25,019 bases of DNA from a virus (Duplodnaviria > Caudoviricetes): the IMG/VR virus record IMGVR_UViG_3300012948_000019, positions 1-25,019 of that record; one strand, given 5' to 3'. The first letter of the stretch is position 1, and the number at the start of each line of letters is the position of its first letter. Shown piece by piece: positions 148 through 20,951 of the stretch. The notes below the pieces were generated by a model. The model had not been told where the DNA came from and ran no database searches. It saw only the letters and a program-made list of their open reading frames with translations. A program made the position numbers and the translations under genes.

Positions 148-1473
148 ATGCCGGGCAGTACCTATAACTACAGCGACCCGGGGCTCTCGACCTCGACGAC
201 GCTGGTCAATGATCTTGCGCCGCTCTGGCTGCAGGATGAGCTCCTCGCCATTGCGCAGAAGCTCACCGTCTTTGCCGACATCGGCGACCAGCCGAACATG
301 CCGGACGGCGAGGGCAAGACCTACAGCGCGCAGCGCTACGAGCGGCTCCCGCTGCCGGGTGCGCCGCTCACTGAGGGCATCACGCCCGACTCGACCGCAC
401 TCGTCGTCAACAAGGTGACGGCGATTCTCGAGCAGTGGGGCATGGTCGTCTCCTTGACCGACGTCGCGCTGATGACGACGAAACACCCGGCGCTGACGGC
501 GGCGACCGACCGGCTCGGGAACGCGTCGGCGGAGCTCCAAGACCGCGAGATCCAAAAGGTGCTGATGGGCTCGGGGGTCGTCGTCTTCCCGGGCGGCAAG
601 ACGTCGCGGACGACGCTCGCTGCCGGGGACGTGCCGACCACGGATTTCGTTTCGGGCATCGTCGCGACGCTCCGCCAGCTCGGCGCGCCCTCCTTCCCGG
701 GCGCGATGTACGCGGGGGTCCTCGACCCGTACACCGAGCAAGATCTCGCCAAAGACTCGACCTTCGTCTCGTCGCACCAGTACGCCGAGACGACGGCGCT
801 GATGAACGCGGAGGTCGGCCGCTGGCGCGGCGTGCGCTGGAAGCGCTCGAACCTCCTCCCGATTATTTCGCTCTTGGCGACCGGTGCCGGGGGCGTGAGC
901 GCCGCGGCCATCACGTCGCTGCCGACGGGGGATACCGGGTTCACGGCCGGCTCGTCGGTGAAAGTCACGGCGGCACTCGCCGATCTGATTACCGGGCTCG
1001 ATAGCAAGCAGATTGCGACCGCCACCGTGACCAACGCCTCGGCCTTTGATGTGCAGTTCACGATTTCCGCGACCGCGCCCGAGGGCCGGTATAACCTCTA
1101 CGTGTCGGCTGAGGGCGGCACCATCCCGTTCTATCAGGGCATCGTGTCGAAGCCCGTCGGGGCGCAACTCTTGGTAAACGTCGCCAAGGTGAGCGGCGGT
1201 GTCTCCATTGGCTTCTCGTCGACCGGCGCACCCGCCGGCGCTGATCCGCCCTCGTCCGCGTTCAACGTACATATCGGCTACATCTTCGGGAAAAGCGCCT
1301 TTGCGGTGCCGGCGCTCGGTGCCCGCACCATCACGACCTTGACACCCGCGACCGCGAGCGACTCCGACCCACTCAAGCAGCGCCGCAAAGCGGGCTTCAA
1401 GTTCATGACCAAGACGTGCATTCTGAACACGGACTTCTTCCGGCGTTTCGAGTGCTCGAGCGCGTTCGGTTGA
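148..1473 (+). CDS. Major capsid protein, N4-gp56-like (HK97 fold), 441 aa
   Basis: AGGAGG RBS at 135-140. Motifs MPDGEGKT..RYERL, LTEGITP, LEQWG..V.LTD, AEVGRWRGVRW and C-terminal SDSDPLKQRRKAGFK match the pattern of N4-gp56-type capsid proteins. Confidence 0.88.
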   Translation: MPGSTYNYSDPGLSTSTTLVNDLAPLWLQDELLAIAQKLTVFADIGDQPNMPDGEGKTYSAQRYERLPLPGAPLTEGITPDSTALVVNKVTAILEQWGMVVSLTDVALMTTKHPALTAATDRLGNASAELQDREIQKVLMGSGVVVFPGGKTSRTTLAAGDVPTTDFVSGIVATLRQLGAPSFPGAMYAGVLDPYTEQDLAKDSTFVSSHQYAETTALMNAEVGRWRGVRWKRSNLLPIISLLATGAGGVSAAAITSLPTGDTGFTAGSSVKVTAALADLITGLDSKQIATATVTNASAFDVQFTISATAPEGRYNLYVSAEGGTIPFYQGIVSKPVGAQLLVNVAKVSGGVSIGFSSTGAPAGADPPSSAFNVHIGYIFGKSAFAVPALGARTITTLTPATASDSDPLKQRRKAGFKFMTKTCILNTDFFRRFECSSAFG

Positions 1474-1478
1474 TTCCG

Positions 1479-1987
1479 ATGGGACGCCCTCCCGGCCGCC
1501 CGCGGGCGGTCCATGATCCGGTCGTCGGCACGGGTGACGACCTTCTTGAGCCTGAGACGCCGCTTGAGCCCGAGGAGGTCGCTGCTGCCGCGCTCGACGA
1601 CCGCGCCCATTTGACCCCGGAGGTCGTGCGCGCACTCAACGACACATGGCGCGACGTCGTGCAGTACGACGACGAGGGGAGCAAGCAGCTCGCGCGGCGC
1701 ATCGTTGGCCGACTCCGTCGGGCCACGCACTTGGAGCTCCATCCCGGCTGCGAGCGGGTCACCGTTACGTACCCATGCTCGCCAACAAGACCTATGCGCG
1801 GATCAACGAGCGCGTGTACTTCGGGCGGGTCGAGGTCTGGGACTGCGAGGCGCGCACCTTGGCAAGCCTCGTCTACGAGGCCCGCAAGGTCGAGGCGCAG
1901 CGCATGGACGACAAGCAGAGCGAGCATCCGACCATGGATCTCGATTCGCCGTTTGCCGAGCGGGCGCGGGCGATTCAACGGGCATGA
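1479..1987 (+). pseudogene. Post-capsid virion-associated protein (~169 aa) interrupted by an apparent -1 frameshift near 1764-1770
   Basis: The frame from ATG 1479 is protein-like up to ERVTV. The -1 frame then continues VPMLANKTYARINERVYFGRVEV... to TGA 1985-1987, which overlaps the next ATG. Confidence 0.6.
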
Positions 1988-2337
1988 TGGCGAAAGGCCC
2001 CGCGACGCGTCATGGCGGCACCCCGCCGTTTTCCGGCCAGCTCGTCAAGGCGACGGGCGAGAACGAGCACGTGACAATCGCCTTCACGGCCCGCACGCCC
2101 GACGAGCTCGAGGCCGCCCTCGCCGCGGCGGGCGCTGCGGCCCTCAAGCGCTTGCAGGCCAATAACGCCGCCGTCTTGAGCGCCGGCGCGCATTTCGAGC
2201 AACGCCAACGCCAAGTGTACCACCACGCGGTCGGGCAGCTCCGCCAAGAGCTCGGGCTGCCCGACCCGCCCGCGGAGGAGGACGCGACTCGTGCCGACAA
2301 TCCCGCCGGGGCGGTACACGCGGCAGAAAATCCGTGA
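1984..2337 (+). CDS. Hypothetical virion-operon protein, 117 aa
   Basis: ATGA overlap with the upstream stop. Ala-rich helical sequence that fills the gap before the adaptor gene. Confidence 0.7.
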   Translation: MMAKGPATRHGGTPPFSGQLVKATGENEHVTIAFTARTPDELEAALAAAGAAALKRLQANNAAVLSAGAHFEQRQRQVYHHAVGQLRQELGLPDPPAEEDATRADNPAGAVHAAENP

Positions 2338-2983
2338 CCTCGCGCTAAACCGCGCGGGCAACCGCGCGCTCGACGCCGACGCCGCCGACTTTCTCGCGCA
2401 GCACCTCTTCGAGCTCTACACGCTCGCCGACTGGCCGTTTCTCTACGTCTCGGCCCCGCTCACGCTCTCGGGCCCCATGGTCACCTTGCCGGCCGACTTC
2501 GTCACGGCGACCGATGACCACGGCTTTCAGATCATCGCGATTGATGGCAGCCCGCAAGCAAACCTGTTTGCGCTCGAGCTGTCGCCCGAGGAGCTCGCCA
2601 CGATCGCCCCGCCGGCCGGCTCAAGTGCCGGCGGCGTGCCGCTCTACTGGGCGGTGTCGCGAAGCGATACGACGGCACGCGTCGCCCCCGACCCGACGGG
2701 CCGGCGGATTGATGTCGTCTTGCGCTACAAGCGCTTGCCGCCCGAGCCGCTCCCCGCCGACGAGCCCGCCGATATCCCCGTGTTCCCGTATCATAACTAC
2801 CTCGTGCAGGCGGTCTATGTGTTTGCGCTCGAGCACGAGCGCGACGCCCGGGCACAAGCCGAGGCCGCCAGTCGTGATAATCTCTTGGCACTCATCCGCC
2901 GCGGCGCGGCCCCGCTGCGCTCGCAACGCGCCGACATTCCACTTGACCCGGCCGTGTTTCGCCGGCCGTACCGAGGCGACTAG
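2291..2983 (+). CDS. Putative head-tail adaptor (T7 gp11 / P22 gp4-like position), 230 aa
   Basis: GGAGG RBS and GTG start. Motifs ADWPFL, LPADF and P.YW...P.P, plus size and position just before the large nozzle-like gene. Confidence 0.65.
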   Translation: MPTIPPGRYTRQKIRDLALNRAGNRALDADAADFLAQHLFELYTLADWPFLYVSAPLTLSGPMVTLPADFVTATDDHGFQIIAIDGSPQANLFALELSPEELATIAPPAGSSAGGVPLYWAVSRSDTTARVAPDPTGRRIDVVLRYKRLPPEPLPADEPADIPVFPYHNYLVQAVYVFALEHERDARAQAEAASRDNLLALIRRGAAPLRSQRADIPLDPAVFRRPYRGD

Positions 2984-5008
2984 ATGCCGGGCGCCCCCGA
3001 CCGCGAGACGCCGCTGCCCGTCCGACGCTTCCAGGGCACCATGCTCGCCATGGACCCCGCATTCACGCCCCCGGGCTTTCTCACGCACGCCGAGAATTGG
3101 GTGCCCGATCTCACCTATGTGCTGAGCAAGCGCCGCGGCAGTCTCTCCTGGGTGCGGCTCCCGCAGCCGGGGCGTTGCGACCCGCTCGTCTACACCACGG
3201 CAACCGATGGCCATCGCTATCTCTACGCGGTGGCTGCAGACCAGCTCTACGTGTCGCAGGATGATAGCCCGTTTAGTCCCGTCACAAACGGCCTCTTTCC
3301 GGGCACCCGGGCGGCCCGCGCGGCAGGCACCGACAACCGCTACGGGGCCGCCGTCGTCGCCGATACGCTCTACGTCGGCAGCGACGTCGATCCGATCAAG
3401 GAGGTGCCCCTTGGTGGCGCGGCCACCGATTTGGTGCCGCTCGTGAGTCTGGATGATACCGGACAGGCAACGACGCTCACCGCTGATGATGCCACGCGCG
3501 TGCTCGCCGGGACGTATAGCTATCGGTGGGGCCTCTACGATCACGCGGCGAGCGTCTGGACGAAGATCGGGCCCGTGCGCACGGTGACGACGGGCGGCAC
3601 GGGCCGGCAGCGCATCGCGTTCACGGCACCGAGCGGGGCCCTCTCGGGGCAACTGCTGTATCACCTCTTCTTGGCGGGGGTTGACCAAGAGATTGAAGGC
3701 GCACACGACCAGACGCCCGCCGGGCTCCCTGCCGGGGGGCAATTCGCCTTGTGGGATGACCCGGCCGTGGAATCCGTCGGCGTGCCGACGCCGTCGAGCG
3801 TGGTCCGGCGCGGCTCGCATCTCATCGCACATCGCGGCCGCTTGTGGGGTGCCGGCGGCCTCGATGCGACGCGCCGACGGGCCTGGGCGACGAGTGTGCT
3901 CGTCCCCGGGCTCGAGCAGACCCTCTATGAGCAAGGACTCTTCTTTCCTGCGGCGGCGGTGAGTCCGGACCTCGGCGCGCCGGTGACCGGCTTTGCCGTC
4001 GCGAGTTTGAGCTCGACCAACCGGAGCCCGACGTCGCCGCTCGGGATCTTCACCGCCACAAGTACGTGGCTCTATTTCGGCGACCCGCTCGACGACCCCC
4101 AGAGCGAGCTCGTACAGGTCTCGGGCGAGATCGGCTGCCCGGGCGACCGGACCATCGTGGCGACCCCGGTCGGCGTCCTCTTCTGCGGCAAGCGCAGCGT
4201 CTATCTCTTGACCCCGCAACAAGCCGAGCCACGCGACGTGGGCTGGCCAATCGAGCCGGCGGTGCGGGCACAACCCGTGCCGTTCCGCACGCGGGCCTGG
4301 GCCATCTTTCATCGCGGGTTTTATAAGCTGGCGCTCGTGCCCGCCGGCGGGAGCGACCCGAGCGAGGAATGGTGGCTCGACCTCCGCCACGGCTTGACCG
4401 ATCCCCCGCAATGGTGGGGGCCGCATACGACGCCGGCGTATACGGCGGCCGCCCGCGCGACCGATCATCCAGATGAGGAGGACCGAGCCTGGGCCGCGCA
4501 AGACGGCTCGAGCACGTTTTTTGTGCTCCTCGACCAGCCCGACGAGTACATGGATCCGATCGGGCCGCGGAGCGGTGGGCAATGGAACGTGGCGCAATGG
4601 AACACGGGCCAGTGGGCCACCGAAGTCTCTGCGGCGATTGTCTCGCGGCTGCGCACGGCACTCCTCGATGCGCAGCAACCGTTGACGCCGAAACTCGCCA
4701 AGCGGGCCCGGATCATCGCGCAGACGGTCGATACGACCTCGCTCGGCATCGTCGTGCATTCAGACTATGGCTATGCCGCGTCGGGGACGCTCGTCTTCCC
4801 CACCCCGCCGGGGGACGCGTGGGACACGAGTGATTGGAACGTGAGCGACTTTGCCATGCGCTGGACCGTGCTCAGCGAATTTGAATGCCCCGTGCCAGAG
4901 CCCCGGGGCCGGGCCTTTACGGCGACCTTGACGCACGTCGATGCGCTCCCCTGCGATCTCCGAGACTTTGAGTTGCGTGTCCAGCCCTCGGCCCGGGAGA
5001 CGCGATAA
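2984..5008 (+). CDS. Putative tail nozzle / stabilisation protein (T7 gp12 / P22 gp10-like), 674 aa
   Basis: Abuts the upstream TAG. N-terminal ENW..D....LSKRRG, HRGRLW, IGC, a beta-rich composition and Trp repeats (WNVAQWNTGQW, WDTSDWNVSDF) are consistent with podoviral nozzle proteins. Confidence 0.7.
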   Translation: MPGAPDRETPLPVRRFQGTMLAMDPAFTPPGFLTHAENWVPDLTYVLSKRRGSLSWVRLPQPGRCDPLVYTTATDGHRYLYAVAADQLYVSQDDSPFSPVTNGLFPGTRAARAAGTDNRYGAAVVADTLYVGSDVDPIKEVPLGGAATDLVPLVSLDDTGQATTLTADDATRVLAGTYSYRWGLYDHAASVWTKIGPVRTVTTGGTGRQRIAFTAPSGALSGQLLYHLFLAGVDQEIEGAHDQTPAGLPAGGQFALWDDPAVESVGVPTPSSVVRRGSHLIAHRGRLWGAGGLDATRRRAWATSVLVPGLEQTLYEQGLFFPAAAVSPDLGAPVTGFAVASLSSTNRSPTSPLGIFTATSTWLYFGDPLDDPQSELVQVSGEIGCPGDRTIVATPVGVLFCGKRSVYLLTPQQAEPRDVGWPIEPAVRAQPVPFRTRAWAIFHRGFYKLALVPAGGSDPSEEWWLDLRHGLTDPPQWWGPHTTPAYTAAARATDHPDEEDRAWAAQDGSSTFFVLLDQPDEYMDPIGPRSGGQWNVAQWNTGQWATEVSAAIVSRLRTALLDAQQPLTPKLAKRARIIAQTVDTTSLGIVVHSDYGYAASGTLVFPTPPGDAWDTSDWNVSDFAMRWTVLSEFECPVPEPRGRAFTATLTHVDALPCDLRDFELRVQPSARETR

Positions 5009-5944
5009 ATGGCGAAGATTCCGCGGCCGCCGAAGCAGGGCAATACGACGAGCTATGTCGCCAAGGTGGCGGCGGGCTATACGAAGATCCTCGCCGGCGA
5101 GGTCGATGCCGATTTGGATACGATTTACGACGCATGGAACAACGGCACCGATACCGCGAATCTGAAAGATGGCTCGGTCACGAGCGCAAAACTCGCCGCC
5201 GATGCGGTTGGCCCGCGCGAGCTCGCCGACGGTGCGGTGTTCACGGCCCATCTACAAGACCTCGCGGTGACGACACCGAAACTCGCGGACGGTGCCGTGA
5301 CAGACGCCAAAGTGAGCAACGTGGCGTGGGGGAAGGTGACCGGCGCGCCGACGACCTATCCGCCGTCGGGCCCGGCGGGCGGCAGCTTAAGCGGGAGCTA
5401 TCCGAATCCCGGCATTGCGGCGGGCGCCATCACCGCGGCGGCGCTGGCAGCGGATACCATCACGGCCGCGCAGATTGCCCCGCTGGCCGTCGGCACGTCA
5501 GAGCTCGCGGACGTCGCCGTCACACGTGCGAAACTCGCCCCGGGTGCCATCCAAGGAAACACGCAATATGTGACCATGCCGACGACCTTTAGCTACAATG
5601 CGACCGGCGTCTGGAATCCCGTGGTCGCGCTCGCCGCGCTCAACACGCGCGCAGCCGGCTTGGTCTTTCTCGCGACCAATCACGGGCTCTGCTACCTCAT
5701 CAACGACGGCGGGCTCATTCAGGTGCGCTGGACACGCAACGGGACGCATATCTGCAGCACGAGCGTCAAGGGCGCGGGCAACGTGGCCGTGGCGTCGGCC
5801 TTGCCCAATCTCTCCTGGTATGACGCCGTACCCGCGGCCGGAGCCTACACCTATCAGCTCGAGGTGAAAATTGCCGGCAGCGGCGGGACGATTTTCGTGA
5901 GCGGTGATGCGGGATGCGGCATCGCGGCGTGGGAGATTGGATAA
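5009..5944 (+). CDS. Tail fibre / receptor-binding protein 1, 311 aa
   Basis: Repeats of the VTxAKLA(D) type, a GGSLSGSYPNP motif and a beta-rich C-terminal domain. The N-terminus is paralogous to that of the next gene. Confidence 0.72.
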   Translation: MAKIPRPPKQGNTTSYVAKVAAGYTKILAGEVDADLDTIYDAWNNGTDTANLKDGSVTSAKLAADAVGPRELADGAVFTAHLQDLAVTTPKLADGAVTDAKVSNVAWGKVTGAPTTYPPSGPAGGSLSGSYPNPGIAAGAITAAALAADTITAAQIAPLAVGTSELADVAVTRAKLAPGAIQGNTQYVTMPTTFSYNATGVWNPVVALAALNTRAAGLVFLATNHGLCYLINDGGLIQVRWTRNGTHICSTSVKGAGNVAVASALPNLSWYDAVPAAGAYTYQLEVKIAGSGGTIFVSGDAGCGIAAWEIG

Positions 5945-7129
5945 ATGGCGCTCACACGGCCACTCAAAGAGGGCAGCGTCACCACGTATCAGGCAAAGGT
6001 CGGGCTCGGCTTCAAGGATATTCTCGCGAGCGAGGCCGACGCCGATCACGACACCATCTACGCGGCATGGAATGGCGCGCTCGGCGGGGACCTGAGCGGG
6101 AACCTGCCGAATCCGACGGTGGTCGCGGCGGCGAAGTCCAAGTGGACGGTGTCGGGCACGACGCTCACGCCGACCGATGCGACGAAGACGGTCAGCGTGC
6201 CCGGTGGGGCGGCAGCGACGGGGACGGCGTCTGTGATTCTCGGGAGCAATACCGCGAAAGCGCGGGTGCAAACACTGAACACGGTTGCCAGCCAGAACAC
6301 TTGGTTGTCAATGTCGGTTAATCGCGACGTGGCCGCTGGAACGCAGGATGATGCGACTAAGGTCTCGTGGTCGAGCGTAATCAATATCAGCCTCGATAAT
6401 CTCGCCGTGTCGCGACAACCTGCGGGTGGTGCCAACGTCGCTCTGCTTACGCTCGACAACGCGGGCAATCTGACGCTTCCGGGCGTCGATAACGGCATCG
6501 CGCGGCTTGCGCTGAAGGGGATCGGGACGGCCGCTACGGGGGGGCAAGTCGATCTCTATGAGGCGCGGGGCACGGCAGGCTCGCCCGCGGCGACGACGCT
6601 GAATGATGTGTTGGGGCAGGTGACGGGATGGGGCTACGGCACGAGCTACGCGGCCAGTCCACTCTTGCGATTCGTCGCAAACGAAACGTGGACGGCGACG
6701 GCGCATGGGGCGAGCGCGTATATTTACACGACGCCGCTCGGGTCCACCTCCGCCACGAGTAGCCTCTGGTTTGACTACAATGGCAATATCACCATCTCGG
6801 GCGCGGTGGCGATCAAGGCCAGTGGCACCGCGTGGCAAAACCCCTCCGACATTCGCTTGAAGAAAAATGTCGCGAGGTACACGCGCGGCCTCTCCGAGAT
6901 TCTCCAACTTGAGCCGATCAGCTACACGCTTAAGCAAAACGACATTGATACCTGCGGTTTCGATGCCGAGAAAGTTCGCGCCGTATTCCCCGAATGCGTC
7001 ACCGAGACGCGCATGAAACTGGACCCGGCCGACGAAGAAGAGACGGAGGGCGTGCTCACCTTCGATATGCACCCGATCCTCGTCGCGCTCGTGAACGCGG
7101 TGCGGGAACTGGCGGAGAAGGTCCCGTGA
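5945..7129 (+). CDS. Tail fibre protein 2 with C-terminal intramolecular chaperone (peptidase S74-like) domain, 394 aa
   Basis: PSDIRLKKNV autocleavage motif, followed by GL..I..L.PISY, GF.AE.V..VFPE.V and a terminal LVNAVREL helix. Confidence 0.85.
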   Translation: MALTRPLKEGSVTTYQAKVGLGFKDILASEADADHDTIYAAWNGALGGDLSGNLPNPTVVAAAKSKWTVSGTTLTPTDATKTVSVPGGAAATGTASVILGSNTAKARVQTLNTVASQNTWLSMSVNRDVAAGTQDDATKVSWSSVINISLDNLAVSRQPAGGANVALLTLDNAGNLTLPGVDNGIARLALKGIGTAATGGQVDLYEARGTAGSPAATTLNDVLGQVTGWGYGTSYAASPLLRFVANETWTATAHGASAYIYTTPLGSTSATSSLWFDYNGNITISGAVAIKASGTAWQNPSDIRLKKNVARYTRGLSEILQLEPISYTLKQNDIDTCGFDAEKVRAVFPECVTETRMKLDPADEEETEGVLTFDMHPILVALVNAVRELAEKVP

Positions 7130-7332
7130 TGTCGCAGGTGATTGAGGCGAAGATCCAACAGCATCGCGCGGAGCTCACGCGGCAACGCGGCCGCTTGGCC
7201 GAGCTCCGTCGCGGCGTCGCCGAGGCGCGGGCCATGTGCGCCCGGCTCGAGGGCGCCGTGCTCGCACTCGAGGAGCTCGGTGCCGCCCCCGCCACCGACA
7301 CGGATGGCGCCGGTGAGGACGCCACGTCATGA
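7129..7332 (+). CDS. Small coiled-coil protein, 67 aa (possible tail-fibre assembly factor)
   Basis: ATG 7129 overlaps the fibre stop, and its own stop overlaps the next ATG. Heptad pattern MSQVIEAKIQQHRAELTRQRGRLAEL. Confidence 0.65.
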   Translation: MSQVIEAKIQQHRAELTRQRGRLAELRRGVAEARAMCARLEGAVLALEELGAAPATDTDGAGEDATS

Positions 7333-7949
7333 CGGTCCGTCCCGCCGTCTTTGCCGACGTGCCCAGCCTCCGCCGCCTCTATGCGGCGCTGCAAGCCGAG
7401 CTCGCGCTGGCGTACCCAGTGCCCTATCCCGGGCATGCCTCCGAGGATCTTGACAGCTTCACCCTCTTGGCCGCCCGCCGCCTCGAGCAGGATCCAACGT
7501 TGCTTTTCTACGTCGCCGTGGACGACCAGACGGGCGAGCTCCTCGGCTTTCTCGGCGGCGAGATCTCGGAACGCGCCATCGGCGAGCCGCGTGTCTTTGG
7601 GGCCGCGCATTGGCTCTACATCGTGCCCGATGCGCGGGGCCGCGGCCTCGCCCGCGCGCTTGCCGCGCGCGGCGTCGCCGACTTGGAGGCGCTCGGCGTG
7701 ACGCACGTCGAGATTGGCGCCATTGCCGGTGATACGCAATGGGCGACTCGCGGCTGGCTCCCCTATCTCGTCCACCACGTGTTACCGCTCGCGGCCGTTC
7801 GGGCCGGCGTCGCCGAGCGCCCTGCCGTCGCTCAACCCACCTCGGCGGCCCCGACGGCGCCGGCCCCAGTCGAACCGCCACCGCGGAAGCGCCGTCGGCG
7901 GCGGCGCACGGTGCCGCGGCCGAAGCTGGTTGCCGGGGGCCGCGCATGA
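7329..7949 (+). CDS. GNAT-family acyltransferase 1, 206 aa, with Pro/Arg-rich C-terminal tail
   Basis: Acyl-CoA-binding motif A (LYIVPDARGRGLARAL), N-terminal VRPAVFAD and C-terminal W..RGW. Confidence 0.85.
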   Translation: MTVRPAVFADVPSLRRLYAALQAELALAYPVPYPGHASEDLDSFTLLAARRLEQDPTLLFYVAVDDQTGELLGFLGGEISERAIGEPRVFGAAHWLYIVPDARGRGLARALAARGVADLEALGVTHVEIGAIAGDTQWATRGWLPYLVHHVLPLAAVRAGVAERPAVAQPTSAAPTAPAPVEPPPRKRRRRRRTVPRPKLVAGGRA

Positions 7950-8464
7950 CGCTCGTCGTGCGCACCGCGGAGCCGGGCGACCGCCACGGGCTCGAGCTCC
8001 TCTTGGCCGCCCTCATGCGGGAGCATCAACGCACCTATCCCGGTGCCTATCCGGTCATGCCGCCCGAGGAGGCCGCCGCGCTCTATGCCGCCTCCTACGC
8101 AGCGCGGTTGTTTGAAGATCCACGTCTCGTCGCCGTGCTGGCCGCCGACCGCGCGCCCGTGGGGTGTCTGGTGGGGGAAGTGAGCACGCGCACCGTCGGT
8201 CAGCCGGCGACGGTTTGCTTCGTCGAATGGTTCTATGTCACGCCGGAATCGCGCGGGCTCGGCATTGGACGGGCCCTTGTCCGTGCCGGGTTAACGGTCC
8301 TTCGGGAGCACGGCGTGACCCACGTTGAGTGCCGCAGCGTGCCCGGCGACCGGCAATGGCAACGGCGCGGCTGGCAGGAAACGGCGCGCTCCTACGTTGC
8401 CCCCATGGCGCAGGTCACGGCCTGGGCCGGCCCTGATGAGGAGAGCGGTAATGGTTCCGCATGA
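7946..8464 (+). CDS. GNAT-family acyltransferase 2, 172 aa
   Basis: ATG 7946 (ATGA overlap). Motif A reads FYVTPESRGLGIGRAL. Paralogous to GNAT 1 (GVTHVE...GD.QW..RGW in both). Confidence 0.85.
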   Translation: MTLVVRTAEPGDRHGLELLLAALMREHQRTYPGAYPVMPPEEAAALYAASYAARLFEDPRLVAVLAADRAPVGCLVGEVSTRTVGQPATVCFVEWFYVTPESRGLGIGRALVRAGLTVLREHGVTHVECRSVPGDRQWQRRGWQETARSYVAPMAQVTAWAGPDEESGNGSA

Positions 8465-9779
8465 TAGCCGCCGCTACCATCGCGTGCGGCCGCCGACGTT
8501 CACACGGGCGTATGGCAGCCAGTCCTCAACGCCTCAGGTGGTCTCGCCCTATGGCGGCTTTCCGCAACAGCTTGCCGGCCGCATCAGTCGCCAAGAGCTC
8601 TCGCCGCTCCTCCTCGGGCTCGGCACGGGACAGGGGCAGCGGTATCAACGGCTGATGGCCGACATTCAAAGCGGCCGCGCGCCGGGGCCGCTCGGCGCAG
8701 CGATCCAGCAAATCCAGCAATTTGCGCCGGGGGTGATCGGCGGCGCGCAGGGGATCGGGCAGCAGCTCTCGCAACAAGGTCAGCAAGCCGTCCAGGGCTT
8801 GCAGCAAGCGATTTCTGCGGCGCAGGCGGGCATGCCGCAGTATCAACAAGGCGTCAACCAAGCCTTTCAGGCCGATATCGGCGCGCTCGGGCAAGCGCAA
8901 AACCTCTATGGCCAAGCCGCCGGCATGCTCCCCGCGCTGCAGAATATCGCTGGGCAAGGCACGCAAGGTGCGCAGCAAGCCTTAGCCGCAGCGCAGGGCT
9001 ACATGACCGGGCCGCAGATGCAGGCCGCGCAAGCGCAGCTCGCCCGGGCGCAGGGGCTCTTGCAGGGCGGGGCCGCCGAGACCGGAGCCGGGCAGGCGTT
9101 AAGCCTCGCGCAACGCTACGCGCAGCAAGCCGCCTCCCCGATTGCGCAGGAGGATCTCTACCAGATGGCCGCCCGCCGGGCGCTTGCGCAGGTCCGCCCG
9201 GGGCTCGCCGCCCGGGGCCTCGAGGCCGGCGGCGCTGGGGCGCAAGCCGAGGCCGACGTGTCCCGCGATCTTGCGTACCAGTTTGCTCAGAATCAAGCGG
9301 CGCAGCGGCAAGCGACGTTGCAGGGGTTGACGGGGGCTGCGGGCGGGCTCGGCAACATCCAATCACAAGCGCAACAGAACGTCGGGGCCGCGGCTTCGGG
9401 CTTGGGAAATTTACAGCAGCAAGGCTTGCAAGGTCTCACCGGCGCGAGCCAAGGGGTGCAGCAAGCGGCCACCGGGCAGGCCGCCCTCGGCCAGTCTATG
9501 ATCCCGTATTTGCAGGCGATTCAGCAGGGGGCACAGAACGTCGGGGGTGCCGCGCAGCAAGGCGCCGGGATGCTCATGACGGGCCCCGAGCTCGCCGGCC
9601 AGCAAGCCGCCGCCGTCAACCAACTCGGGCAAGCCCTCATGCAACAATACAATCTTCCGATGCAATCAGCGGGCAACCTGATGAATTTGCTCACGGCCGG
9701 CATGACACCGGGGCTGCAGATGCTCCAGGCGACCGCGCCGACGACGGCGCAATCGAGCAAACAATCGAACATCCTATGA
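8451..9779 (+). CDS. Putative internal virion / DNA-ejection protein A, Gln/Gly/Ala-rich, 442 aa
   Basis: GAGGAG RBS at 8438-8443 and ATG 8451. Low-charge helical Q/A/G composition. Position after tail genes and GNATs matches podoviral ejection proteins. Confidence 0.7.
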   Translation: MVPHDSRRYHRVRPPTFTRAYGSQSSTPQVVSPYGGFPQQLAGRISRQELSPLLLGLGTGQGQRYQRLMADIQSGRAPGPLGAAIQQIQQFAPGVIGGAQGIGQQLSQQGQQAVQGLQQAISAAQAGMPQYQQGVNQAFQADIGALGQAQNLYGQAAGMLPALQNIAGQGTQGAQQALAAAQGYMTGPQMQAAQAQLARAQGLLQGGAAETGAGQALSLAQRYAQQAASPIAQEDLYQMAARRALAQVRPGLAARGLEAGGAGAQAEADVSRDLAYQFAQNQAAQRQATLQGLTGAAGGLGNIQSQAQQNVGAAASGLGNLQQQGLQGLTGASQGVQQAATGQAALGQSMIPYLQAIQQGAQNVGGAAQQGAGMLMTGPELAGQQAAAVNQLGQALMQQYNLPMQSAGNLMNLLTAGMTPGLQMLQATAPTTAQSSKQSNIL

Positions 9780-10387
9780 CACACGATAGCCGTCGCTACC
9801 ATCGTCGTCGTGGTCCCACGGTCGCGCGCGCATACGGCATGCTCGGTGCCCTTGGCGGAGCTGCCGAGGGTGCCGGCTCGGCACTTGGGAGCGCCGCGAG
9901 CGCCGTCGGGAGCGGGCTCGAGACTGCGGCGGGCGCGGCCCTCGGGGGCGCTGGCAAGAGCGCGCTCTCGGGGCTCGAGAGTGTGGGCACGGGCTTAAAG
10001 TCGCTCTTTAGCGCGGTCCCGACCGAGGCGGAGCGGATTGCCGCGCTCGGGCAACCTGTGCCTGCGGGGGTCGAGTTGGCGGGCCCGAGCTCGACGTTTA
10101 CGGGCCCGGGGTTTCTCAACAGCATGGTGCAGGGCTTTGTGCACGGGCCACAACAATTCGCCAACGCGAGCGCGGGGACGAGTCTCGGGCAAGGCATCGG
10201 TGGGCTCTTGCAAGCGCTCGACCAGCTGAACGCGCAGCGGCAGGGCGGCATGTCGCTCGCGCCGATTGTCGGCGGCGTGAGCGGTGTCCAGCCGTTGCGG
10301 GGCCCGAAGTATCTTCCCGACCAGACGCCGCCGATGGGGCCCGGGCCGATCATGGGCATGATTGGGCAGCTCTTTAAGGGCTTCTGA
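9776..10387 (+). CDS. Putative ejection protein B, Gly/Ala-rich, 203 aa
   Basis: ATGA overlap. Glycine-zipper-like amphipathic segments. Shares its N-terminal leader with protein A. Confidence 0.7.
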   Translation: MTHDSRRYHRRRGPTVARAYGMLGALGGAAEGAGSALGSAASAVGSGLETAAGAALGGAGKSALSGLESVGTGLKSLFSAVPTEAERIAALGQPVPAGVELAGPSSTFTGPGFLNSMVQGFVHGPQQFANASAGTSLGQGIGGLLQALDQLNAQRQGGMSLAPIVGGVSGVQPLRGPKYLPDQTPPMGPGPIMGMIGQLFKGF

Positions 10388-12465
10388 TGGACGGCTTCAG
10401 CTCCGTCGAGAATATCGCGGGCCGCGGCGTTGGGCTCTTGTCGGCGCTCGCCAGCATCAAGGGGGGCGGGCTCGCCAACTACATGCTCGCGCGGCAGCGC
10501 ATGATGACCGACCCGGCGTACCGCGCCAGTTTCATCGACGCCCCCTTTACCGCGGGCTTTTTTGGCCTCGGACAAGGCGCCCCACCGACGGCGGCGGCAC
10601 AAGCGCAAGTCGCGCAACCCGCCGGCGGCGGCGGGCCACCGCCGGCGGCCGCACCGCAAGATGTCCGCTATTTGCCGACGGGCGGCACATGGTATCCCGG
10701 CGTGGCCCCGCTCGATTACGCCCAGCAAGTGAAAGCCGAGCAGGATCGCGCGACGATGATCGGGCTCACGAGCAACGATCCCGCGATCCGCACGCAATCG
10801 AAGCTCTCGATTGGCGTGCCGCTCTCCCAGGAGGAAATGGGGCAAGCCGTTGGTGCCGGCCGCGAGCTGGTGCGGCAAGCGGGCCCGGGCTCGCAAGTCC
10901 AGTACAAGCTCCCGGGCGGCGCGGTCACGGTCGGCTCGCCGTACATCAGCGGCAACTATCTCGACCAGAATGCGGCGGCGGTCGTTGCCCAGCGGACTGG
11001 TGGGGTGGTCGTGCCGAGCCCGAGCGGCGGCTTTGAGGTTAAAGCGCCCGAGCGCCCCGTCCAGGGCGAATACACTGACCCGAATCAGGCGGCGGCCGTG
11101 CGGCAGCCGGGCGAGGTCACGAAACCGACCGGGCGCACCGTCAACGGCGTGCCGACATACTACAACGTGAAGCAAGAGCCCGTGGGCGTGGCACCCTTGC
11201 CGACCGCGCCAGCCGCGCGGCCTGCGCCACCAGCCCCGGTGCGTCCGGCAGTGCCGGTCACGCCACCACCACCGGCCGCCGAACCACCGGCACCCGCACC
11301 GGCCCCGGCAGCCGCGCCACCTCCGCCACCGCCACCACCACCACCCGCGTCGCAAGCAGCTCCCGCACCGCCTCCACCGCCACCGCATGAGATCGTGCGC
11401 CAACGCCCGGACGGATCGTTCGAGCCCGTCGCGCCGCCCCCACCGCCCGCACCGGCACCGCGCGCAGAGGCCGCACCAATCACCGCGCCGCCGCTGCTTG
11501 CCGCCGCCGGGCCGTCACCGTTCCAGATGCCGTGGCAAGGAGCGCCCGCACCGGCCGTGGCCGCCCCCGCGCCCATCATGGTCGCACGCGCCGAGCCGCC
11601 ACCCTACCAGCTCGTTCCGGGCGCCGAGCTCGGCGGCATTGTGAGCGGGGCGCCGCCCGCACCTGCCGAGCAACGGTTACCCGCCGTGCCCGCAACCGCG
11701 GTGCCGTGGACGCCGACGCCGGCGGGACAACCAGCAGCGCAACCCGCGGCGACGCCACCGGGGATGCCGGTCGGCACGGAAACCTTCACGCAAACGCAGC
11801 CCATCGAACCGAGGCTCGGCGGGGGCACCAAAACGTTTGCAGGCGAGACACCCGGGAAGCGTGAAGCCGACCTCGAGATGGCACGGCGACGGGCCGAGGT
11901 TGAGAAAGACGTGGCGTCAAAATTCGGCTCGATTCCTCAAACGAAGGAACTTGACGAGGCATATCGGGTGCGGAGTGACATAAACGACCTCCTCAACGGG
12001 TACACGCCAAAGGAACGTGCCGGGTACGTCGGCTACGTGGAGCCGTATCTGCGCCGGTTCTGGTCGGGGAACGACCCACGTTATCAACGCTTCCTTGATT
12101 TGAATACACGCATTCATGCCGCGTTGGGTGGCGAGAAGAGTGAGCTGCCGTTGCCGACCGGCTACGAATCAACGCCCGCACAATACGAGAGTGCATTACG
12201 TTCGTCGGCCGATACGGTCGACAAAATCATTTCCGTGCAAGCCGCGCTCGCGAATATGCACCCGGCCGATTTGACGCCAGACCAGCAACGGAAGTTTATC
12301 AACGAACGCATGTCCGATCCGAGCACGGTACATTTTGGCCCGTACCCGTGGGACGAAAAAACCGGCGCACCGATCTCGAGCCAAGCGACACCAACGAGCT
12401 CGACGACGACGACCACGAGCCCGTTTCTCGTCGACCGACGCTATACGATCCAGCCCGCGCAGTAG
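10387..12465 (+). CDS. Putative ejection protein C with long Pro/Ala-rich central region, 692 aa
   Basis: TGATG overlap. Long ORF in the virion operon with a helical, charged C-terminal domain. Confidence 0.68.
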   Translation: MDGFSSVENIAGRGVGLLSALASIKGGGLANYMLARQRMMTDPAYRASFIDAPFTAGFFGLGQGAPPTAAAQAQVAQPAGGGGPPPAAAPQDVRYLPTGGTWYPGVAPLDYAQQVKAEQDRATMIGLTSNDPAIRTQSKLSIGVPLSQEEMGQAVGAGRELVRQAGPGSQVQYKLPGGAVTVGSPYISGNYLDQNAAAVVAQRTGGVVVPSPSGGFEVKAPERPVQGEYTDPNQAAAVRQPGEVTKPTGRTVNGVPTYYNVKQEPVGVAPLPTAPAARPAPPAPVRPAVPVTPPPPAAEPPAPAPAPAAAPPPPPPPPPPASQAAPAPPPPPPHEIVRQRPDGSFEPVAPPPPPAPAPRAEAAPITAPPLLAAAGPSPFQMPWQGAPAPAVAAPAPIMVARAEPPPYQLVPGAELGGIVSGAPPAPAEQRLPAVPATAVPWTPTPAGQPAAQPAATPPGMPVGTETFTQTQPIEPRLGGGTKTFAGETPGKREADLEMARRRAEVEKDVASKFGSIPQTKELDEAYRVRSDINDLLNGYTPKERAGYVGYVEPYLRRFWSGNDPRYQRFLDLNTRIHAALGGEKSELPLPTGYESTPAQYESALRSSADTVDKIISVQAALANMHPADLTPDQQRKFINERMSDPSTVHFGPYPWDEKTGAPISSQATPTSSTTTTTSPFLVDRRYTIQPAQ

Positions 12466-12468
12466 CGT

Positions 12469-14118
12469 ATGGCCGAGGAGCAGCAATTCTACCGGCAATA
12501 TTTGCAATCAACCGCACCTGACGGCTCGCAAACGATCCGCGAAGTCGTGTCGCCGACACTCCTCGACCACGACGCCGCTGCGGCGGCGGAGCAACAGGCA
12601 GGCCACACGTTTACGGGGTTCATCTCCCCCGACAAAATGCCGCCCGCGCAACCGGCCCCACCGACACCACCTCCAGCTGCGCCCGCCGTCTCTGCGGTTC
12701 CCGCCTCTGGGCCACCCCCAACGACGCAGCGCTGGACCCCGTCCGGTCAAGAGGTCGCCGTGCCCTCGCCGGGGGCAACCCCGTGGCTGAACATGATTCC
12801 CCCGGCGATGGCGGTTGCGGGGCCGCTGGCGCTCTCGATTGCGCAACCGGAGATTGGCCTGCCCCTCTGGCTACTGTCCGCGACGAGCGCCGGCCTTGGT
12901 ATGGGCGGCGGCGAAGCAATCCGCGAGAAACTCGCCGGCGAGGAGATCTCGCCGGCGAATATCGCCGAGCAAGGAGCCCTCGGCGCGGCGACGGATGTCG
13001 GCATGGGGGTGCTCACCAAATTCGCCGCCCCGGTCGTGAAGTACGCCGCGGGGCGCCTCTTTCCCACGCTTACGGCTGTCGAGCAGGCCGGGCCCGTCCT
13101 CGCGACGGGCGGGCAAGCAGCCGAGACTGCCGCCCCGAGGGTCTCCGACTTGGCGTCGCAAGCCGCGAAGGGTGTTCGAGCGAGCACAGACCAGGCATTC
13201 GACGCTGCTCGCAGCGCCGGGCAAGGGCTCCAAGTGTCGACGGCGGGGCTCGACCCACACGTCGCGGCGGCCACAGATGCCGTTACACGGGCTGGCGCAA
13301 CGCCCGAGCAAGTCGCGCAGTTTAACAGCGTGGTCAGGCCCCTGACGGGCGGCGCCCCAGCCGACTATCGGCAGCTTATGAGTACCCAGCGGCAGGTCGA
13401 GAACTGGGTCAGCGGCATGCGCTCGAATGGCGTCGCCGCGAGCGAGATCGCCCCGGTCGAGCAATTGCACCAAGCGCTCGGTGGTCAGCTCGACGCCGCG
13501 GCGGCGGGTACCCCGGCCGCCCCCATGCACGCGCAATATGTGAGCGCGCAGGGTCAGCAGCTCCCGACACGCTATGCGCTCTCGAGCGTCGCGGGCGATG
13601 CGACGAACCTCGCCGCAGAAACCCCCGCGACCATTCAAGCGATTGCGAAGCAAGCGAGCGAGGCTGAACGGCCTGCGCTTGCTGCTGCATGGGTCGATTC
13701 AGCCCGCCGCTCCGCGGCGCAAAGTGCCAACCCCGTCACGGCCATGCGTGCGCAGTACGAGGCGCTGGGGTCTGAGACGCAAACGGCGCTCTTTGGGTCG
13801 CACAAGGCTGCGTTCGAGGACGTTTTACGGGCGGGCGATATCTCCCTTGGCCGCGCGGCGCTGCCGGGGGTTGCTGGTACCGCGGCGACCGCGGCGAAGT
13901 ATGCGGGGCTCCCTCACGTCCCGGGCCTTGGGTATACCGTCGCCGCCGGCGACCTCATGGCGCCCTTTGTGGCGCGGCAAGCACTCGTCAGCCCCCGATT
14001 CGCGGCGTTTGGCGGCGGCTTATCACGTACGATGGGCGTGGCGGCGCCGGCGGCGGCGCGGCTGGGGGGTCAATCGTACGCTGAGCGGGCGTGGCAAGCG
14101 GGCTTGCCGTCGTTCTAA
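12469..14118 (+). CDS. Putative ejection protein D, Ala-rich, 549 aa
   Basis: Last gene of the + strand operon. Contains hydrophobic Gly/Ala stretches (PLALSIAQPEIGLPLWLLSATSAGLGMGGG). Its stop overlaps the stop of the convergent gene. Confidence 0.68.
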   Translation: MAEEQQFYRQYLQSTAPDGSQTIREVVSPTLLDHDAAAAAEQQAGHTFTGFISPDKMPPAQPAPPTPPPAAPAVSAVPASGPPPTTQRWTPSGQEVAVPSPGATPWLNMIPPAMAVAGPLALSIAQPEIGLPLWLLSATSAGLGMGGGEAIREKLAGEEISPANIAEQGALGAATDVGMGVLTKFAAPVVKYAAGRLFPTLTAVEQAGPVLATGGQAAETAAPRVSDLASQAAKGVRASTDQAFDAARSAGQGLQVSTAGLDPHVAAATDAVTRAGATPEQVAQFNSVVRPLTGGAPADYRQLMSTQRQVENWVSGMRSNGVAASEIAPVEQLHQALGGQLDAAAAGTPAAPMHAQYVSAQGQQLPTRYALSSVAGDATNLAAETPATIQAIAKQASEAERPALAAAWVDSARRSAAQSANPVTAMRAQYEALGSETQTALFGSHKAAFEDVLRAGDISLGRAALPGVAGTAATAAKYAGLPHVPGLGYTVAAGDLMAPFVARQALVSPRFAAFGGGLSRTMGVAAPAAARLGGQSYAERAWQAGLPSF

Positions 14119-14324
14119 GCAAGCCCCCGCCCAGTGCGAGAACGCGCATCGTGAGGCGGTGGGTTGCGCTTCAAGCGTGCCAAGACACGCGCCGCCTCCT
14201 CCGGGCTCATGGGGGCAGGAGGGGGAAAGAGGCCATCTAGGAAGCCCACCAAGAGCCGCGTCGCTCCCGCGACTAGGAGCAGTGCACCAAGCCAGTTCGC
14301 ACAGAGAGCACGTAAGAGCGTCAT
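14115..14324 (-). CDS. Small predicted membrane protein, 69 aa
   Basis: Hydrophobic N-terminal half (WLGALLLVAGATRLLVGFL). Preceded by the shared TAGAAGGT-ATG motif. Confidence 0.6.
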   Translation of the reverse strand: MTLLRALCANWLGALLLVAGATRLLVGFLDGLFPPPAPMSPEEAARVLARLKRNPPPHDARSRTGRGLA

Positions 14325-14356
14325 ACCTTCTAGACGCTACCTGTAACGCTAACAGG

Positions 14357-14575
14357 TCATCCGTGGACCAATCGGCCGAGGATTCCCGTCGCAATGACGA
14401 GGGTCCAAGTAATCCCGAAGCCCCACAGCATATAGCGTTCGAGGGTCGCGAACCGCTCGTCAACCGCGCGGAATCGATCATCGACGCGCTTCTCGAACTG
14501 GTCAAAGCGCCCCTCAATTCGGCCGAGGGCTTGACTGATCGGGTCGATCGGATGCTCCGAGACCGGCGTGCTCAT
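14357..14575 (-). CDS. Small coiled-coil protein with C-terminal transmembrane helix, 72 aa
   Basis: Heptad-like RF repeats (IEGRFDQFEKRVDDRFRAVDERF), then MLWGFGITWTLVIATGILG. Preceded by TAGAGGGT-ATG. Confidence 0.75.
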   Translation of the reverse strand: MSTPVSEHPIDPISQALGRIEGRFDQFEKRVDDRFRAVDERFATLERYMLWGFGITWTLVIATGILGRLVHG

Positions 14576-14598
14576 ACCCTCTAGACCTACTTGTTACG

Positions 14599-14757
14599 CT
14601 AAACGTGTCGCGCGCGCCACCACGCCCGGAGCCCGGCGACGACCATGGCGACGAGGGTGCCGAGCACGGTGGCGACGGTGATGGCGGCATAGAGGGCGAC
14701 GAGGACCCCCACGCCAATCACGGCGACGAGGACCGCCCAATAGGCCAGCGCGACCAT
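14599..14757 (-). CDS. Very hydrophobic 52-aa membrane protein (not in the ORF track)
   Basis: Translated by hand: MVALAYWAVLVAVIGVGVLVALYAAITVATVLGTLVAMVVAGLRAWWRARHV*. About 40 apolar residues followed by a basic tail; it fills the intergenic gap. Confidence 0.7.
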   Translation of the reverse strand: MVALAYWAVLVAVIGVGVLVALYAAITVATVLGTLVAMVVAGLRAWWRARHV

Positions 14758-14777
14758 CCTAGCGTCTCGGCGAGCCT

Positions 14778-15575
14778 CTAGGGGCCTTTAGTAGCTACGC
14801 GGTGACGCTGCCTAGAGCGCGTTGACGCGAGGGTGCGGCATGGTCGGCAACCGCGGTCACCGGAGGGCGTCACATAGACGCTTTCGCTTGTGTAGACGTG
14901 GCCGCGGGGGCACTGCGTTTTCCTGCGCGCGAGCCGCCAGCGTTGCGCCGCGAGTTTCAATGCAGCGGCCTGCACGCTCTGGTGGGCCATCGCAGGATCC
15001 ATCAAGAACGAGCGCTCAATCCGGGCCCATTCCCAGATTCCGTCGTGATTCTCCGGAAAGTACAACGAGGTACCGTACTGGCGCACGACCCAGTGCGGCA
15101 CGCAAAAGATACGGTCTGGACTGACGACATAGCAGACATAGGCCGGCCGACGGTAACAGTGGCCCGAGCGGAAATAGCGGCCCCACGCGCTGAACTGATA
15201 CGCGGCCCCCGTCGCGTGACAGCAGATCGCCACCTCCGTCGGGCCGACATGGAGGACGCCAGTACAGTAGGTCGCCTGACCCTGAGTGACGACGATTTTG
15301 ACGGCGATGCGATGGGCGTTGCACCAGTCCGCGACGACTTGCTGTGCTGGGCGTAATCCACGCTCAAGATAGCGCTGGTGCAGTCGCCGCACGCGCCCCA
15401 ATTGTCTCGCACGCGACCGCAGGCCGATCGTTGCCGCACACATTCGCACCCATTCACGCGAGACGCCGAGGGCGTTGCCAATCGCCCGCAAGGGGGCACC
15501 GGCCTTGATGCACTCAGTGAGAAATTCAGTTTGATCCTGGCCTTTGATGAAGACCCGTGGCTGGTCAGGATCCAC
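14778..15575 (-). CDS. HTH plus C-terminal zinc-binding domain protein (homing-endonuclease-like architecture), ~265 aa
   Basis: GGAGG RBS before GTG 15575. Sigma-region-4-like HTH (LRAIGNALGVSREWVR) and C-terminal KTQCPRGH...RGCRPC, a motif seen at the end of phage HNH proteins. Confidence 0.6.
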   Translation of the reverse strand: MDPDQPRVFIKGQDQTEFLTECIKAGAPLRAIGNALGVSREWVRMCAATIGLRSRARQLGRVRRLHQRYLERGLRPAQQVVADWCNAHRIAVKIVVTQGQATYCTGVLHVGPTEVAICCHATGAAYQFSAWGRYFRSGHCYRRPAYVCYVVSPDRIFCVPHWVVRQYGTSLYFPENHDGIWEWARIERSFLMDPAMAHQSVQAAALKLAAQRWRLARRKTQCPRGHVYTSESVYVTPSGDRGCRPCRTLASTRSRQRHRVATKGP

Positions 15576-15705
15576 GCTCGCCTCCTTGCCGGATGCGCCA
15601 CGCCATGACTCGGCACTTGGGGGAGCAGTACCGGGCTGTCCGGCGCTGGGGGGTGAAAGGCCGGTGGCAGTGGGCACAGCGGCGGCCGGGCTTCTCTGCC
15701 GTCAC
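15565..15705 (-). CDS. Small zinc-finger protein, ~46 aa
   Basis: CAHC...F......ARYCSPKCR motif. GTG 15705 overlaps the upstream TGA. Confidence 0.65.
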   Translation of the reverse strand: MTAEKPGRRCAHCHRPFTPQRRTARYCSPKCRVMAWRIRQGGERGS

Positions 15706-16133
15706 GGATGCTCTCTGAGAATGCCCTCGCTTGGCGCAGAGGCCATACGACATGGGAGGCGACCCTCCTTCCAAGCCCGATACCCTTCCTCGTCATCTGG
15801 AATTCCGAGGTCCCGCCACTCGGGCAGTGCGTCGTGCAATTTGACCCGTATGCGCTCCCACCGATCGCGAGCATGTCGGAGCGTCGGCTCAGACCAACCT
15901 TCGCGGCCCCAGCCGCTCGGCGGCGGATAGGCCTCGTGCGGAGCGGTCGTGCGCCCGTCGGGCCACCGTCGTGCACCGACACGGCGGAGCTGGATAACCT
16001 CGTAGTGCGGCAGGTGGGGTCGGCCGTCGCCGATCCACGTCCGCTCGACGACGCACCAGAGGCCCGCACGAGCGAGAAGGACGTGCCGGTACTCGTCCCG
16101 CTCGAACGGGAAGCGGAGCGGCTCCTCGGCCAT
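15702..16133 (-). CDS. Hypothetical protein, 143 aa
   Basis: TGATG coupling to the upstream gene. Protein-like composition, including EAYPPPSGWGREGWS. Confidence 0.65.
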   Translation of the reverse strand: MAEEPLRFPFERDEYRHVLLARAGLWCVVERTWIGDGRPHLPHYEVIQLRRVGARRWPDGRTTAPHEAYPPPSGWGREGWSEPTLRHARDRWERIRVKLHDALPEWRDLGIPDDEEGYRAWKEGRLPCRMASAPSEGILREHP

Positions 16134-20188: not shown

Positions 20189-20298
20189 GAATTGCTGGCC
20201 CCCTTTGCGCTCGGGTCCTTCGTCCGTCCCCTCCCCACCACCCCTGCGCTGAGTCTACTGGCAGACCTGCCATCTCTTACCGCGTCGGTGCGTCGGCG

Positions 20299-20327
20299 CT
20301 TGTACGGTGCTTGTCAAAAGCTGTCAA
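20299..20327 (-). promoter_or_regulatory. Candidate sigma70-type promoter for the xis-int-rep run
   Basis: Minus-strand TTGACA (20322-20327), 17-bp spacer, TACAAG (20299-20304). A second TTGACA lies at 20312-20317. Confidence 0.45.
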
Positions 20328-20412
20328 CCCGGATTACGCATGATACATGCCGAAAACGGTGCATAACGGGAAGATTGAACGCCGAAAACGGCTCCGCTAC
20401 GCGCACAAAACC

Positions 20413-20859: not shown

Positions 20860-20914
20860 GCCGGAGGCTGTACCAGAGGCCGGCACGATACGCAAGGGCC
20901 TAATACTATCGGAC

Positions 20915-20943
20915 TTGACACTATTGGGGCCCGGCGGTAGTCT
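20915..20943 (+). promoter_or_regulatory. Sigma70-type promoter, probably leaderless
   Basis: TTGACA (20915-20920), 17-bp spacer, TAGTCT (20938-20943). The ATG follows 8 nt later. Confidence 0.7.
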
Positions 20944-20951
20944 TAGAGGGT

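Follow-up and report, generated by a model that had tools for sequence, protein, structure and literature searches.

A short arginine-rich leader shared by two likely ejection proteins of a temperate podovirus-type phage, a possible removable pro-peptide that does not follow the number of neighbouring GNAT genes

Background

The subject of this report is a short N-terminal peptide, denominated leader, found at the start of two consecutive and otherwise unrelated proteins, A and B, in the virus record IMGVR_UViG_3300012948_000019. This stretch of 25,019 bases, the full record and about 65% complete, is referred to as the window. The genes for A and B directly follow two genes encoding paralogous acetyltransferases of the GNAT fold. 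The closest described systems are those of phages P22 and T4. The P22 ejection protein gp7 carries a 20-residue leader, which is removed by the host enzyme OpdA (PMC8402733; P22 record). According to the same paper (PMC8402733), an amber fragment of gp7 taken from virion-like particles gave the N-terminal sequence Lys-Gly-Gly-Lys-Gly, gp7 residues 21-154 bind procapsids, and deletion of the leader leaves a burst of ~60%. As this N-terminus is readable, mature gp7 is probably not blocked. Processed gp7 is described in 10.64898/2026.09.03.749273 as an extracellular channel entering the outer membrane by C-terminal helices. T4 internal proteins have in common a 10-residue targeting propeptide cut by gp21, which is identical in IPII and IPIII and in which targeting and processing reside in separate residues (PMC9026906). 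In the T7-like phage vB_PaeM-G11, ORF39, annotated as a GNAT, is located directly before gp14-16 (PMC10142737). The terms 'acetyl' and 'oligopeptidase' are absent from the available portion of a review of ejection proteins (PMC8954989), and a search covering mostly non-subscription literature found no paper on a leader shared by podovirus ejection proteins, or on the acylation of these proteins.

A preliminary description of the locus had proposed that the leader recruits the GNATs, one per protein, in the manner of pathways for peptides made on the ribosome and modified after translation (RiPPs), and that the Gly freed by leader removal is acylated for engagement of the membrane.

The leader of proteins A and B

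The two proteins and their leaders are located as follows:

8451..9779, plus strand: protein A, 442 aa, Gly/Ala/Gln-rich and predicted to be almost all helical; likely small ejection protein, from gene order and a structure model
8451..8513, plus strand: leader of A, 21 aa, with a DSRRYHR core and the end R-A-Y; Gly at 8514-8516
9776..10387, plus strand: protein B, 203 aa, rich in Gly and Ala, its N-terminal part mildly hydrophobic; likely ejection protein
9776..9835, plus strand: leader of B, 20 aa; Gly at 9836-9838; the ATG overlaps the stop of A

The coordinates and sequences of both N-termini are exactly those first reported. The leader is Arg-rich and ends in R-x-Y-G. When A and B are compared by BLASTP, the single significant segment is the N-terminal peptide (15/19 identical residues, E 4e-8 for the pair), which ends at the Gly; the next segment has an E of 0.33. 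The similarity is confined to the N-termini, as originally noticed, and the three synonymous differences then listed (CAT/CAC, CGC/CGT, TAT/TAC) are all in the DNA. In 31 loci having both leader copies, the mean entropy at codon positions 1, 2 and 3 is 0.11, 0.16 and 1.05 bits, respectively. Among the copies collected first (17 of A, 16 of B), the leader core is the same throughout while its codons vary, Ser being encoded by both AGY and TCN. The early proposal that selection acts on the peptide, and not on a DNA repeat, is upheld by the entropy values. Third-position identity of the two copies is 0.506 within genomes and 0.494 between genomes (31 loci, permutation p 0.31), which, together with the codon entropy, attributes the likeness of the copies to selection on the peptide and not to recent copying. 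The same identities show no sign of ongoing gene conversion between the A and B copies, which is therefore rejected.

The possibility that translation starts downstream of the motif, raised at the outset, was checked. The Met following YG in B is present in 25/31 loci and replaced by Ala, Leu or Ile in the remaining 6, and in the window no Shine-Dalgarno-like sequence precedes it. Protein A has no Met after the leader motif, and its start is preceded by a ribosome-binding candidate:

8438..8443, plus strand: Shine-Dalgarno-like GAGGAG ahead of the start of A, from the sequence

GAGGAG, or a close variant, precedes A in all 17 A copies of the first set. As 6 loci have another residue in place of this internal Met, the leader is very likely translated, and the true starts of A and B very likely lie upstream of the motif.

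A profile of the leader detected exactly two copies in the window, exactly two in each of two complete relatives with terminal repeats, four in a 54-kb record hosting two modules, and none in one divergent relative. No profile match was found on the downstream proteins C and D in the window or in the complete relatives. The two-module record (G003, the L003/L010 record, 54,415 bases) carries the whole module at 6413-7935 and again at 43585-44990, with differing leaders; assembly may have merged two related phages. Occurrence of the leader in further protein families was partly covered, in two size classes. Among proteins of 111-356 aa the 29 matches are the query, 27 B orthologues or fragments, recognized by N- and C-terminal likeness, and one off-frame record; among proteins of 775-2210 aa, a weak test, no match was found.

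The leader boundary and leaderless orthologues

Of 81 unique loci bearing A, 75 provided leaders for scoring; three divergent leaders from loci with one GNAT were set aside, and three other loci were off-pattern. A leaders are 19-26 residues long, with a net charge of +2 to +5. They end in Tyr (58) or Phe (17), and have Arg at the third position from the end in 74/75. Of 120 homologues of A taken from databases, 106 could be scored, the other 14 being mostly truncated records; the residue after the leader is Gly in 101/106 and Ser in 5/106. The resulting pattern, R-x-aromatic followed by a small residue, has the look of a cleavage motif.

Three distant A orthologues (L110, L115, L202) are leaderless, and all three start with Met-Gly, having a Shine-Dalgarno-like sequence directly before ATG-GGC. 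The start Gly of L110 and L115 aligns with Gly22 of A, and is invariant in 15/15 diverse A orthologues, these two included; L202 adds a third case of the same start. Mature A probably begins at Gly, and the leaderless Met-Gly starts are the strongest argument for this. The Tyr-Gly boundary initially assumed is thus backed comparatively, both by the three aligned starts and by the predominance of Gly in the homologues.

B lacks the leader in 20 of the 51 loci in which it is seen. Position 2 of these leaderless proteins is Gly in 11, Ala in 7, and Pro and Ser in one each. Gly or Ala in 18/20 fits N-acylation and also the plain rules of Met removal, and the same double fit, to leader-independent acylation and to Met removal, applies to the Gly conserved with and without leader. 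By eye, leaderless B starts (Met, a small residue, Trp/Phe, a hydrophobic run) look like the start of T7 gp14, as at L066:8875, L115:7282 and L103:7845; the B profile gave no match to T7 gp14.

Leaders and GNAT genes

The genes preceding A are:

7329..7949, plus strand: GNAT1, 206 aa, single-domain acetyltransferase fold with a Pro/Arg-rich tail (PF00583, E 7.6e-8; phrog_1249)
7946..8464, plus strand: GNAT2, 172 aa, paralogue of GNAT1 (PF00583, E 1.2e-10; structure model with a predicted local distance difference test score, pLDDT, of 87)

The two proteins are 37% identical over 160 aa, and the genes overlap. The overlaps are ATGA for the genes starting at 7329, 7946 and 9776 and TGATG for the one at 10387, and the first 14 nt of A lie within GNAT2. 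Two coupled paralogues directly upstream of A are therefore a correct reading of the window. A 2:2 pairing of enzymes and leaders does not extend to relatives.

Full upstream context was available for 60 of the 81 loci; L202, found later, is additional. Two GNATs are accompanied by leaders on both A and B in 21/60 loci, and by a leader on A and a leaderless B in 17/60; in another 17/60 loci with two GNATs, B was not seen. One GNAT is found with a leader on A in 3/60 loci, and with A and B both leaderless in 2/60 (L110, L115); L202 similarly associates one GNAT with a leaderless A. Beside two GNATs, B is leaderless in 17 of the 38 full-context loci in which it is seen. On the whole, nearly all relatives carry a leader on A, and a single lineage carries one on B.

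In a FastTree of 36 GNATs, the GNAT1 and GNAT2 clades each span phages with and without a leader on B, and the GNAT duplication is therefore older than the leader on B. Phages with a B leader form one group in both clades (support 97 and 88, 15 two-GNAT phages). In each of the one-GNAT sister pairs L064/L202 (support 100) and L110/L112 (support 95), one member has the A leader and the other lacks it. The leader does not go with the GNATs as a unit, and is independent of their number. The proposed pairing fails on the 21 versus 17 two-GNAT loci, on the mixed one-GNAT loci and on the age of the duplication. Leader-directed modification is likewise not supported, in view of GNATs found without leader (L110, L115, L202) and of the 17 two-GNAT loci with a single leader; the leader likely does not guide the neighbouring acetyltransferases. 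The expected co-occurrence survived in one direction, as a GNAT accompanies the leader in 20/20 loci found through the leader, and failed in the other, as GNATs occur without leader and copy numbers do not co-vary.

Both GNATs retain an intact loop for binding coenzyme A (CoA). In 50 orthologues of each, R103 of the CoA-binding loop is invariant and G106 is invariant or nearly so; in GNAT1 both are invariant. The GNAT2 model is a confident, single, generic GNAT domain. Its best solved matches are generic acetyltransferases, including N-terminal acetyltransferases, at template modelling (TM) scores of about 0.5-0.66, which do not discriminate the substrate; viral matches include GNATs of cultured podoviruses. 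No solved N-myristoyltransferase (NMT) is among the fold matches listed, and one viral match (rank 10) bears an automatic NMT-domain name. No leader-recognition domain was detected on either protein, as Pfam returned only GNAT families and the model is single-domain. Co-folding of GNAT1, GNAT2, CoA and A residues 1-60 scored 0.01, in a run without controls that is evidence neither way. A GNAT at this position is also found in phage VpV262, where ORFS matches the GNAT profile (E 9e-12 among 8 proteins) and fold, and directly precedes a 203-aa leaderless gene followed by a 1,536-aa gene.

Both GNATs share the motif D-x-Q-W-x-x-R-G-W (window 7731-7757 in GNAT1 and 8348-8374 in GNAT2), invariant in 50 orthologues each except for the last Trp of GNAT2. 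Many GNATs have at this site a longer helix with a Tyr, and the motif may bear on the choice of the acyl chain. The end of GNAT1 (window 7880-7949) features a Pro-rich stretch and an Arg run; the basic tail is kept in distant orthologues, and could bind nucleic acid. In one database record (P0075, 579 aa, one member) GNAT2 is fused in frame to a leader-bearing A, which may reflect a lost stop or an assembly error.

Likely ejection proteins

A and B are followed by two larger leaderless proteins:

10387..12465, plus strand: protein C, large, leaderless, likely ejection protein (SLT/amidase domains at this position in relatives)
12469..14118, plus strand: protein D, leaderless, last gene of the module (the L110 protein at the D position has an SLT domain)

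SLT or amidase domains were identified in 6 of 13 scanned downstream proteins of relatives, five at the C and one at the D position. No Pfam or PHROG family is matched by A or B, nor by 14 orthologues of A, the gp7 families PF25688 and phrog_598 included. The structure model of A is of low confidence (pLDDT 63, predicted TM score 0.29), and a fold search with it found nothing at E <=0.001. An Atlas search with A returned a cluster with P22_gp7 in 21% of its members (score 0.91), which is to be taken as a lead only. The position of the genes, the Gly/Ala/Gln-rich helical make-up and the downstream SLT/amidase domains make A and B likely ejection proteins.

Genomic context

The GNAT genes are preceded by virion genes, assigned by Pfam/PHROG context:

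148, plus strand: major capsid gene
2291, plus strand: SU10-type adaptor
2984, plus strand: candidate nozzle
5009 and 5945, plus strand: two fibre genes
148..7129, plus strand: podovirus-type virion module preceding the GNATs

The order in the window is capsid, adaptor, nozzle, fibres, GNAT1, GNAT2, A, B, C and D. Part of a terminase, an integrase and a resolvase are on the opposite strand. The complete relative G001, which has terminal repeats, adds an SU10-type portal, and has its scaffold gene at 20293-21039. The phage is temperate, and its virion module is of the podovirus type. The 6800-10600 region gave no promoter or terminator matches. Cultured relatives of A or GNAT2 are missing among 50,697 phage records. 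A GTDB match is a 30-kb contig from a metagenome-assembled genome (MAG) of Gaiellales, and one A homologue is named from a Steroidobacteraceae MAG; as pointers to the host the two are mutually inconsistent, and the contigs possibly mis-binned.

The large terminase may be split (window 24407-25019, minus strand; G001 6560-7279, minus strand, and 14193-15059, plus strand). The ATPase-like half (phrog_2) is a separate frame of 242-273 aa, and a conserved 289-aa gene ahead of the portal has a match to a large terminase in GenBank (27%, E 2e-10). The halves are separate genes in 5/5 near-complete relatives, and on opposite strands in 4/5. A PAPS-reductase-domain gene is interposed between the terminase-like gene and the portal (G001 15056-15766, plus strand). 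An HNH-like gene, recognized by visible motifs, is located directly 3' of A in two relatives (L035:4677-5144, L095:7720); B follows it in L095, and the contig ends there in L035.

Discussion

The account we favour, to which we give about an even chance, sees in the shared peptide an N-terminal module that can pass between proteins, probably a pro-peptide which a host peptidase removes by cutting after R-x-(Y/F); the GNATs, likely older, would not depend on it. The GNATs would belong to an older gene slot preceding podovirus ejection genes. After their duplication, a copy of the leader would have moved from A to B, replacing the short hydrophobic start of B. Such a gain is suggested by the GNAT trees, and by the likeness of leaderless B starts in the outgroups and in the two-GNAT clade. 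Until its removal, the leader may hold the new protein in a soluble, inactive state, or pass it on to the procapsid; once mature, the virion protein would start with Gly. The DSRRYH core could be where the peptidase, or a partner in assembly, docks. More tentatively, the cutter would be a host enzyme: no peptidase family was found in the 63 open reading frames (ORFs) of G001 located outside the region common with the window (Pfam, ORFs of at least 90 aa), which points to the host.

The organization recalls P22, in which gene 14 precedes gene 7. In both phages an N-terminal segment of ~20 residues is on the first ejection-type gene, a small gene is in front, and what follows the segment is a Gly/Lys-rich start of small residues. 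The position typical of gp7, first ejection-type gene after the adaptor/hub genes and a small accessory gene, is found here too. The gp7 leader is dispensable; here the leader is absent from some orthologues. In contrast to P22, the same leader is found on two proteins instead of one, the boundary is Y-G instead of E-K, and there are two GNAT genes. With the capsid targeting sequence (CTS) of T4 IPI, IPII and IPIII the leader shares the presence of one short propeptide on otherwise divergent internal proteins, and a conserved core set apart from the processing end. The T4 CTS, however, has 10 residues and is cut after L/I-x-E by the phage protease gp21, whereas 19-26 Arg-rich residues ending in R-x-Y/F are found here, in a podovirus-type module; the L/I-x-E site of prohead proteases is not at the leader boundary. 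The leader may work like that of P22 and shares with T4 the feature of one peptide on several proteins, but by sequence is a member of neither. The leader described here is well conserved, and analogues are known in both phages.

Several observations weigh against the pro-peptide account. Its basis for a cut between Tyr and Gly is comparison and analogy, and the peptidase scan covered Pfam families in the longer ORFs. A cut site would need less conservation than is found in the DSRRYH core, which suits a binding tag. A GNAT is upstream in all loci found through the leader; moreover, most loci were found via the GNAT, and hence leaders without GNAT would be under-sampled, and the sample cannot show leaders in GNAT-less phages. 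In a quick tree of A, the root falls through long branches inside the phages with a B leader, and L132, which has a leader-bearing B, is found among leaderless ones, so that this tree does not bear out the gain of the leader on B that the GNAT trees suggest. The gp7 leader has no visible sequence likeness to the one described here, and the Atlas lead on A was not confirmed, as hhalign of A and P22 gp7 gave a probability of 0.2%. T7 gp13 and P22 gp14, which we take to be GNAT-like, were not confirmed as such: T7 gp13 matched the GNAT profile weakly (E 0.054 among 8 proteins), and P22 gp14 was not detected (0.4%).

Among the alternatives, one with a real if clearly smaller chance is that the leader serves chiefly in capsid targeting, as the T4 CTS does: the scaffold, the portal or the procapsid would bind it, A and B would thereby enter the head, and cleavage would follow. 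The same peptide on two unrelated proteins, a nearly invariant core distinct from the R-x-Y-G end, and the separate targeting and processing residues of IPII and IPIII (PMC9026906) fit a tag well. It is harder to reconcile with B leaderless in 20/51 loci and A in three, with C and D devoid of leader in the window and the complete relatives, or with the lack of a prohead protease among the 63 G001 ORFs scanned; in P22, moreover, procapsids are bound by the part of gp7 that follows the leader, and loss of the leader still allows ~60% of the burst (PMC8402733).

A tentative proposal, separate from these rival accounts and with a low chance, gives the GNATs a role. The GNATs in the podovirus gp13/gp14 slot would N-acylate the small N-terminal residue of ejection proteins, and the leader would be a timed cap and not an address label. 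The acceptor residue would be exposed by Met removal in leaderless proteins and by leader cutting in the others, and the tandem GNATs may work as a two-domain acyltransferase. As in vB_PaeM-G11 and VpV262, a small GNAT-fold gene directly precedes internal virion genes; the GNAT is single there and in tandem here, and the gene following it in VpV262 has no such leader. A GNAT in this slot is therefore ordinary, and needs no leader, which speaks for the pro-peptide account.

It is rather improbable that the leader stays uncut and forms a basic arm which, inside the head, attaches to DNA or to an acidic surface, helping to order the ejection proteins. Its charge, with Arg and His, would suit such an arm, as would the lack of a protease in the scanned G001 ORFs and the comparative and analogical nature of the case for cleavage. 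Orthologues starting exactly at the same Gly, and a fixed boundary having the look of a cut site, argue for removal.

Leader-directed acylation, as first proposed, is now quite unlikely. NMT is a double-GNAT enzyme with a strict N-terminal Gly acceptor. The GNAT fold and a candidate N-terminal Gly exposed by processing are points of likeness to NMT and RiPP acylation, and the consistent presence of an upstream GNAT in overlapping genes, the Gly after nearly all A leaders and the intact CoA loops of both enzymes are what the model expects. The GNATs here are, in contrast, single domains of ~165 aa with no recognition domain, encoded by two separate genes and by one in six relatives, and their number does not follow that of the leaders; their duplication predates the split in B leaders. 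The acceptor position is, unlike the Gly of NMT, Ser, Ala or Pro in some orthologues, with Ser in 5 A homologues, and the N-terminus of mature P22 gp7 can be sequenced (PMC8402733), so that the analogy with NMT is weak.

That the repeat is a DNA or RNA element (a recent duplication or a translational-coupling signal), the peptide being incidental and the starts downstream, can practically be dismissed: the Met after YG in most B copies and the DNA-level similarity of the A and B copies are outweighed by variation concentrated at third positions, Ser encoded by AGY and TCN, the lack of that Met in A and in 6/31 B copies, and the lack of promoter or terminator matches in the region.

Conclusions

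If the leader is cleavable and transferable, it reveals the way in which podoviruses load their ejection proteins or keep them under control, for which even P22 offers no explanation, and would be a 20-residue tag candidate for packaging foreign proteins. If acylation proves true, a widespread and unexplained virion-assembly gene would receive a biochemical job, and phages would have lipid- or acetyl-capped ejection proteins. The relatives form a natural series (both proteins with leader, A alone, or neither, and one or two GNATs) which predicts mature N-termini exactly, and by this on/off series the role of the GNAT beside ejection genes becomes addressable with short peptides.

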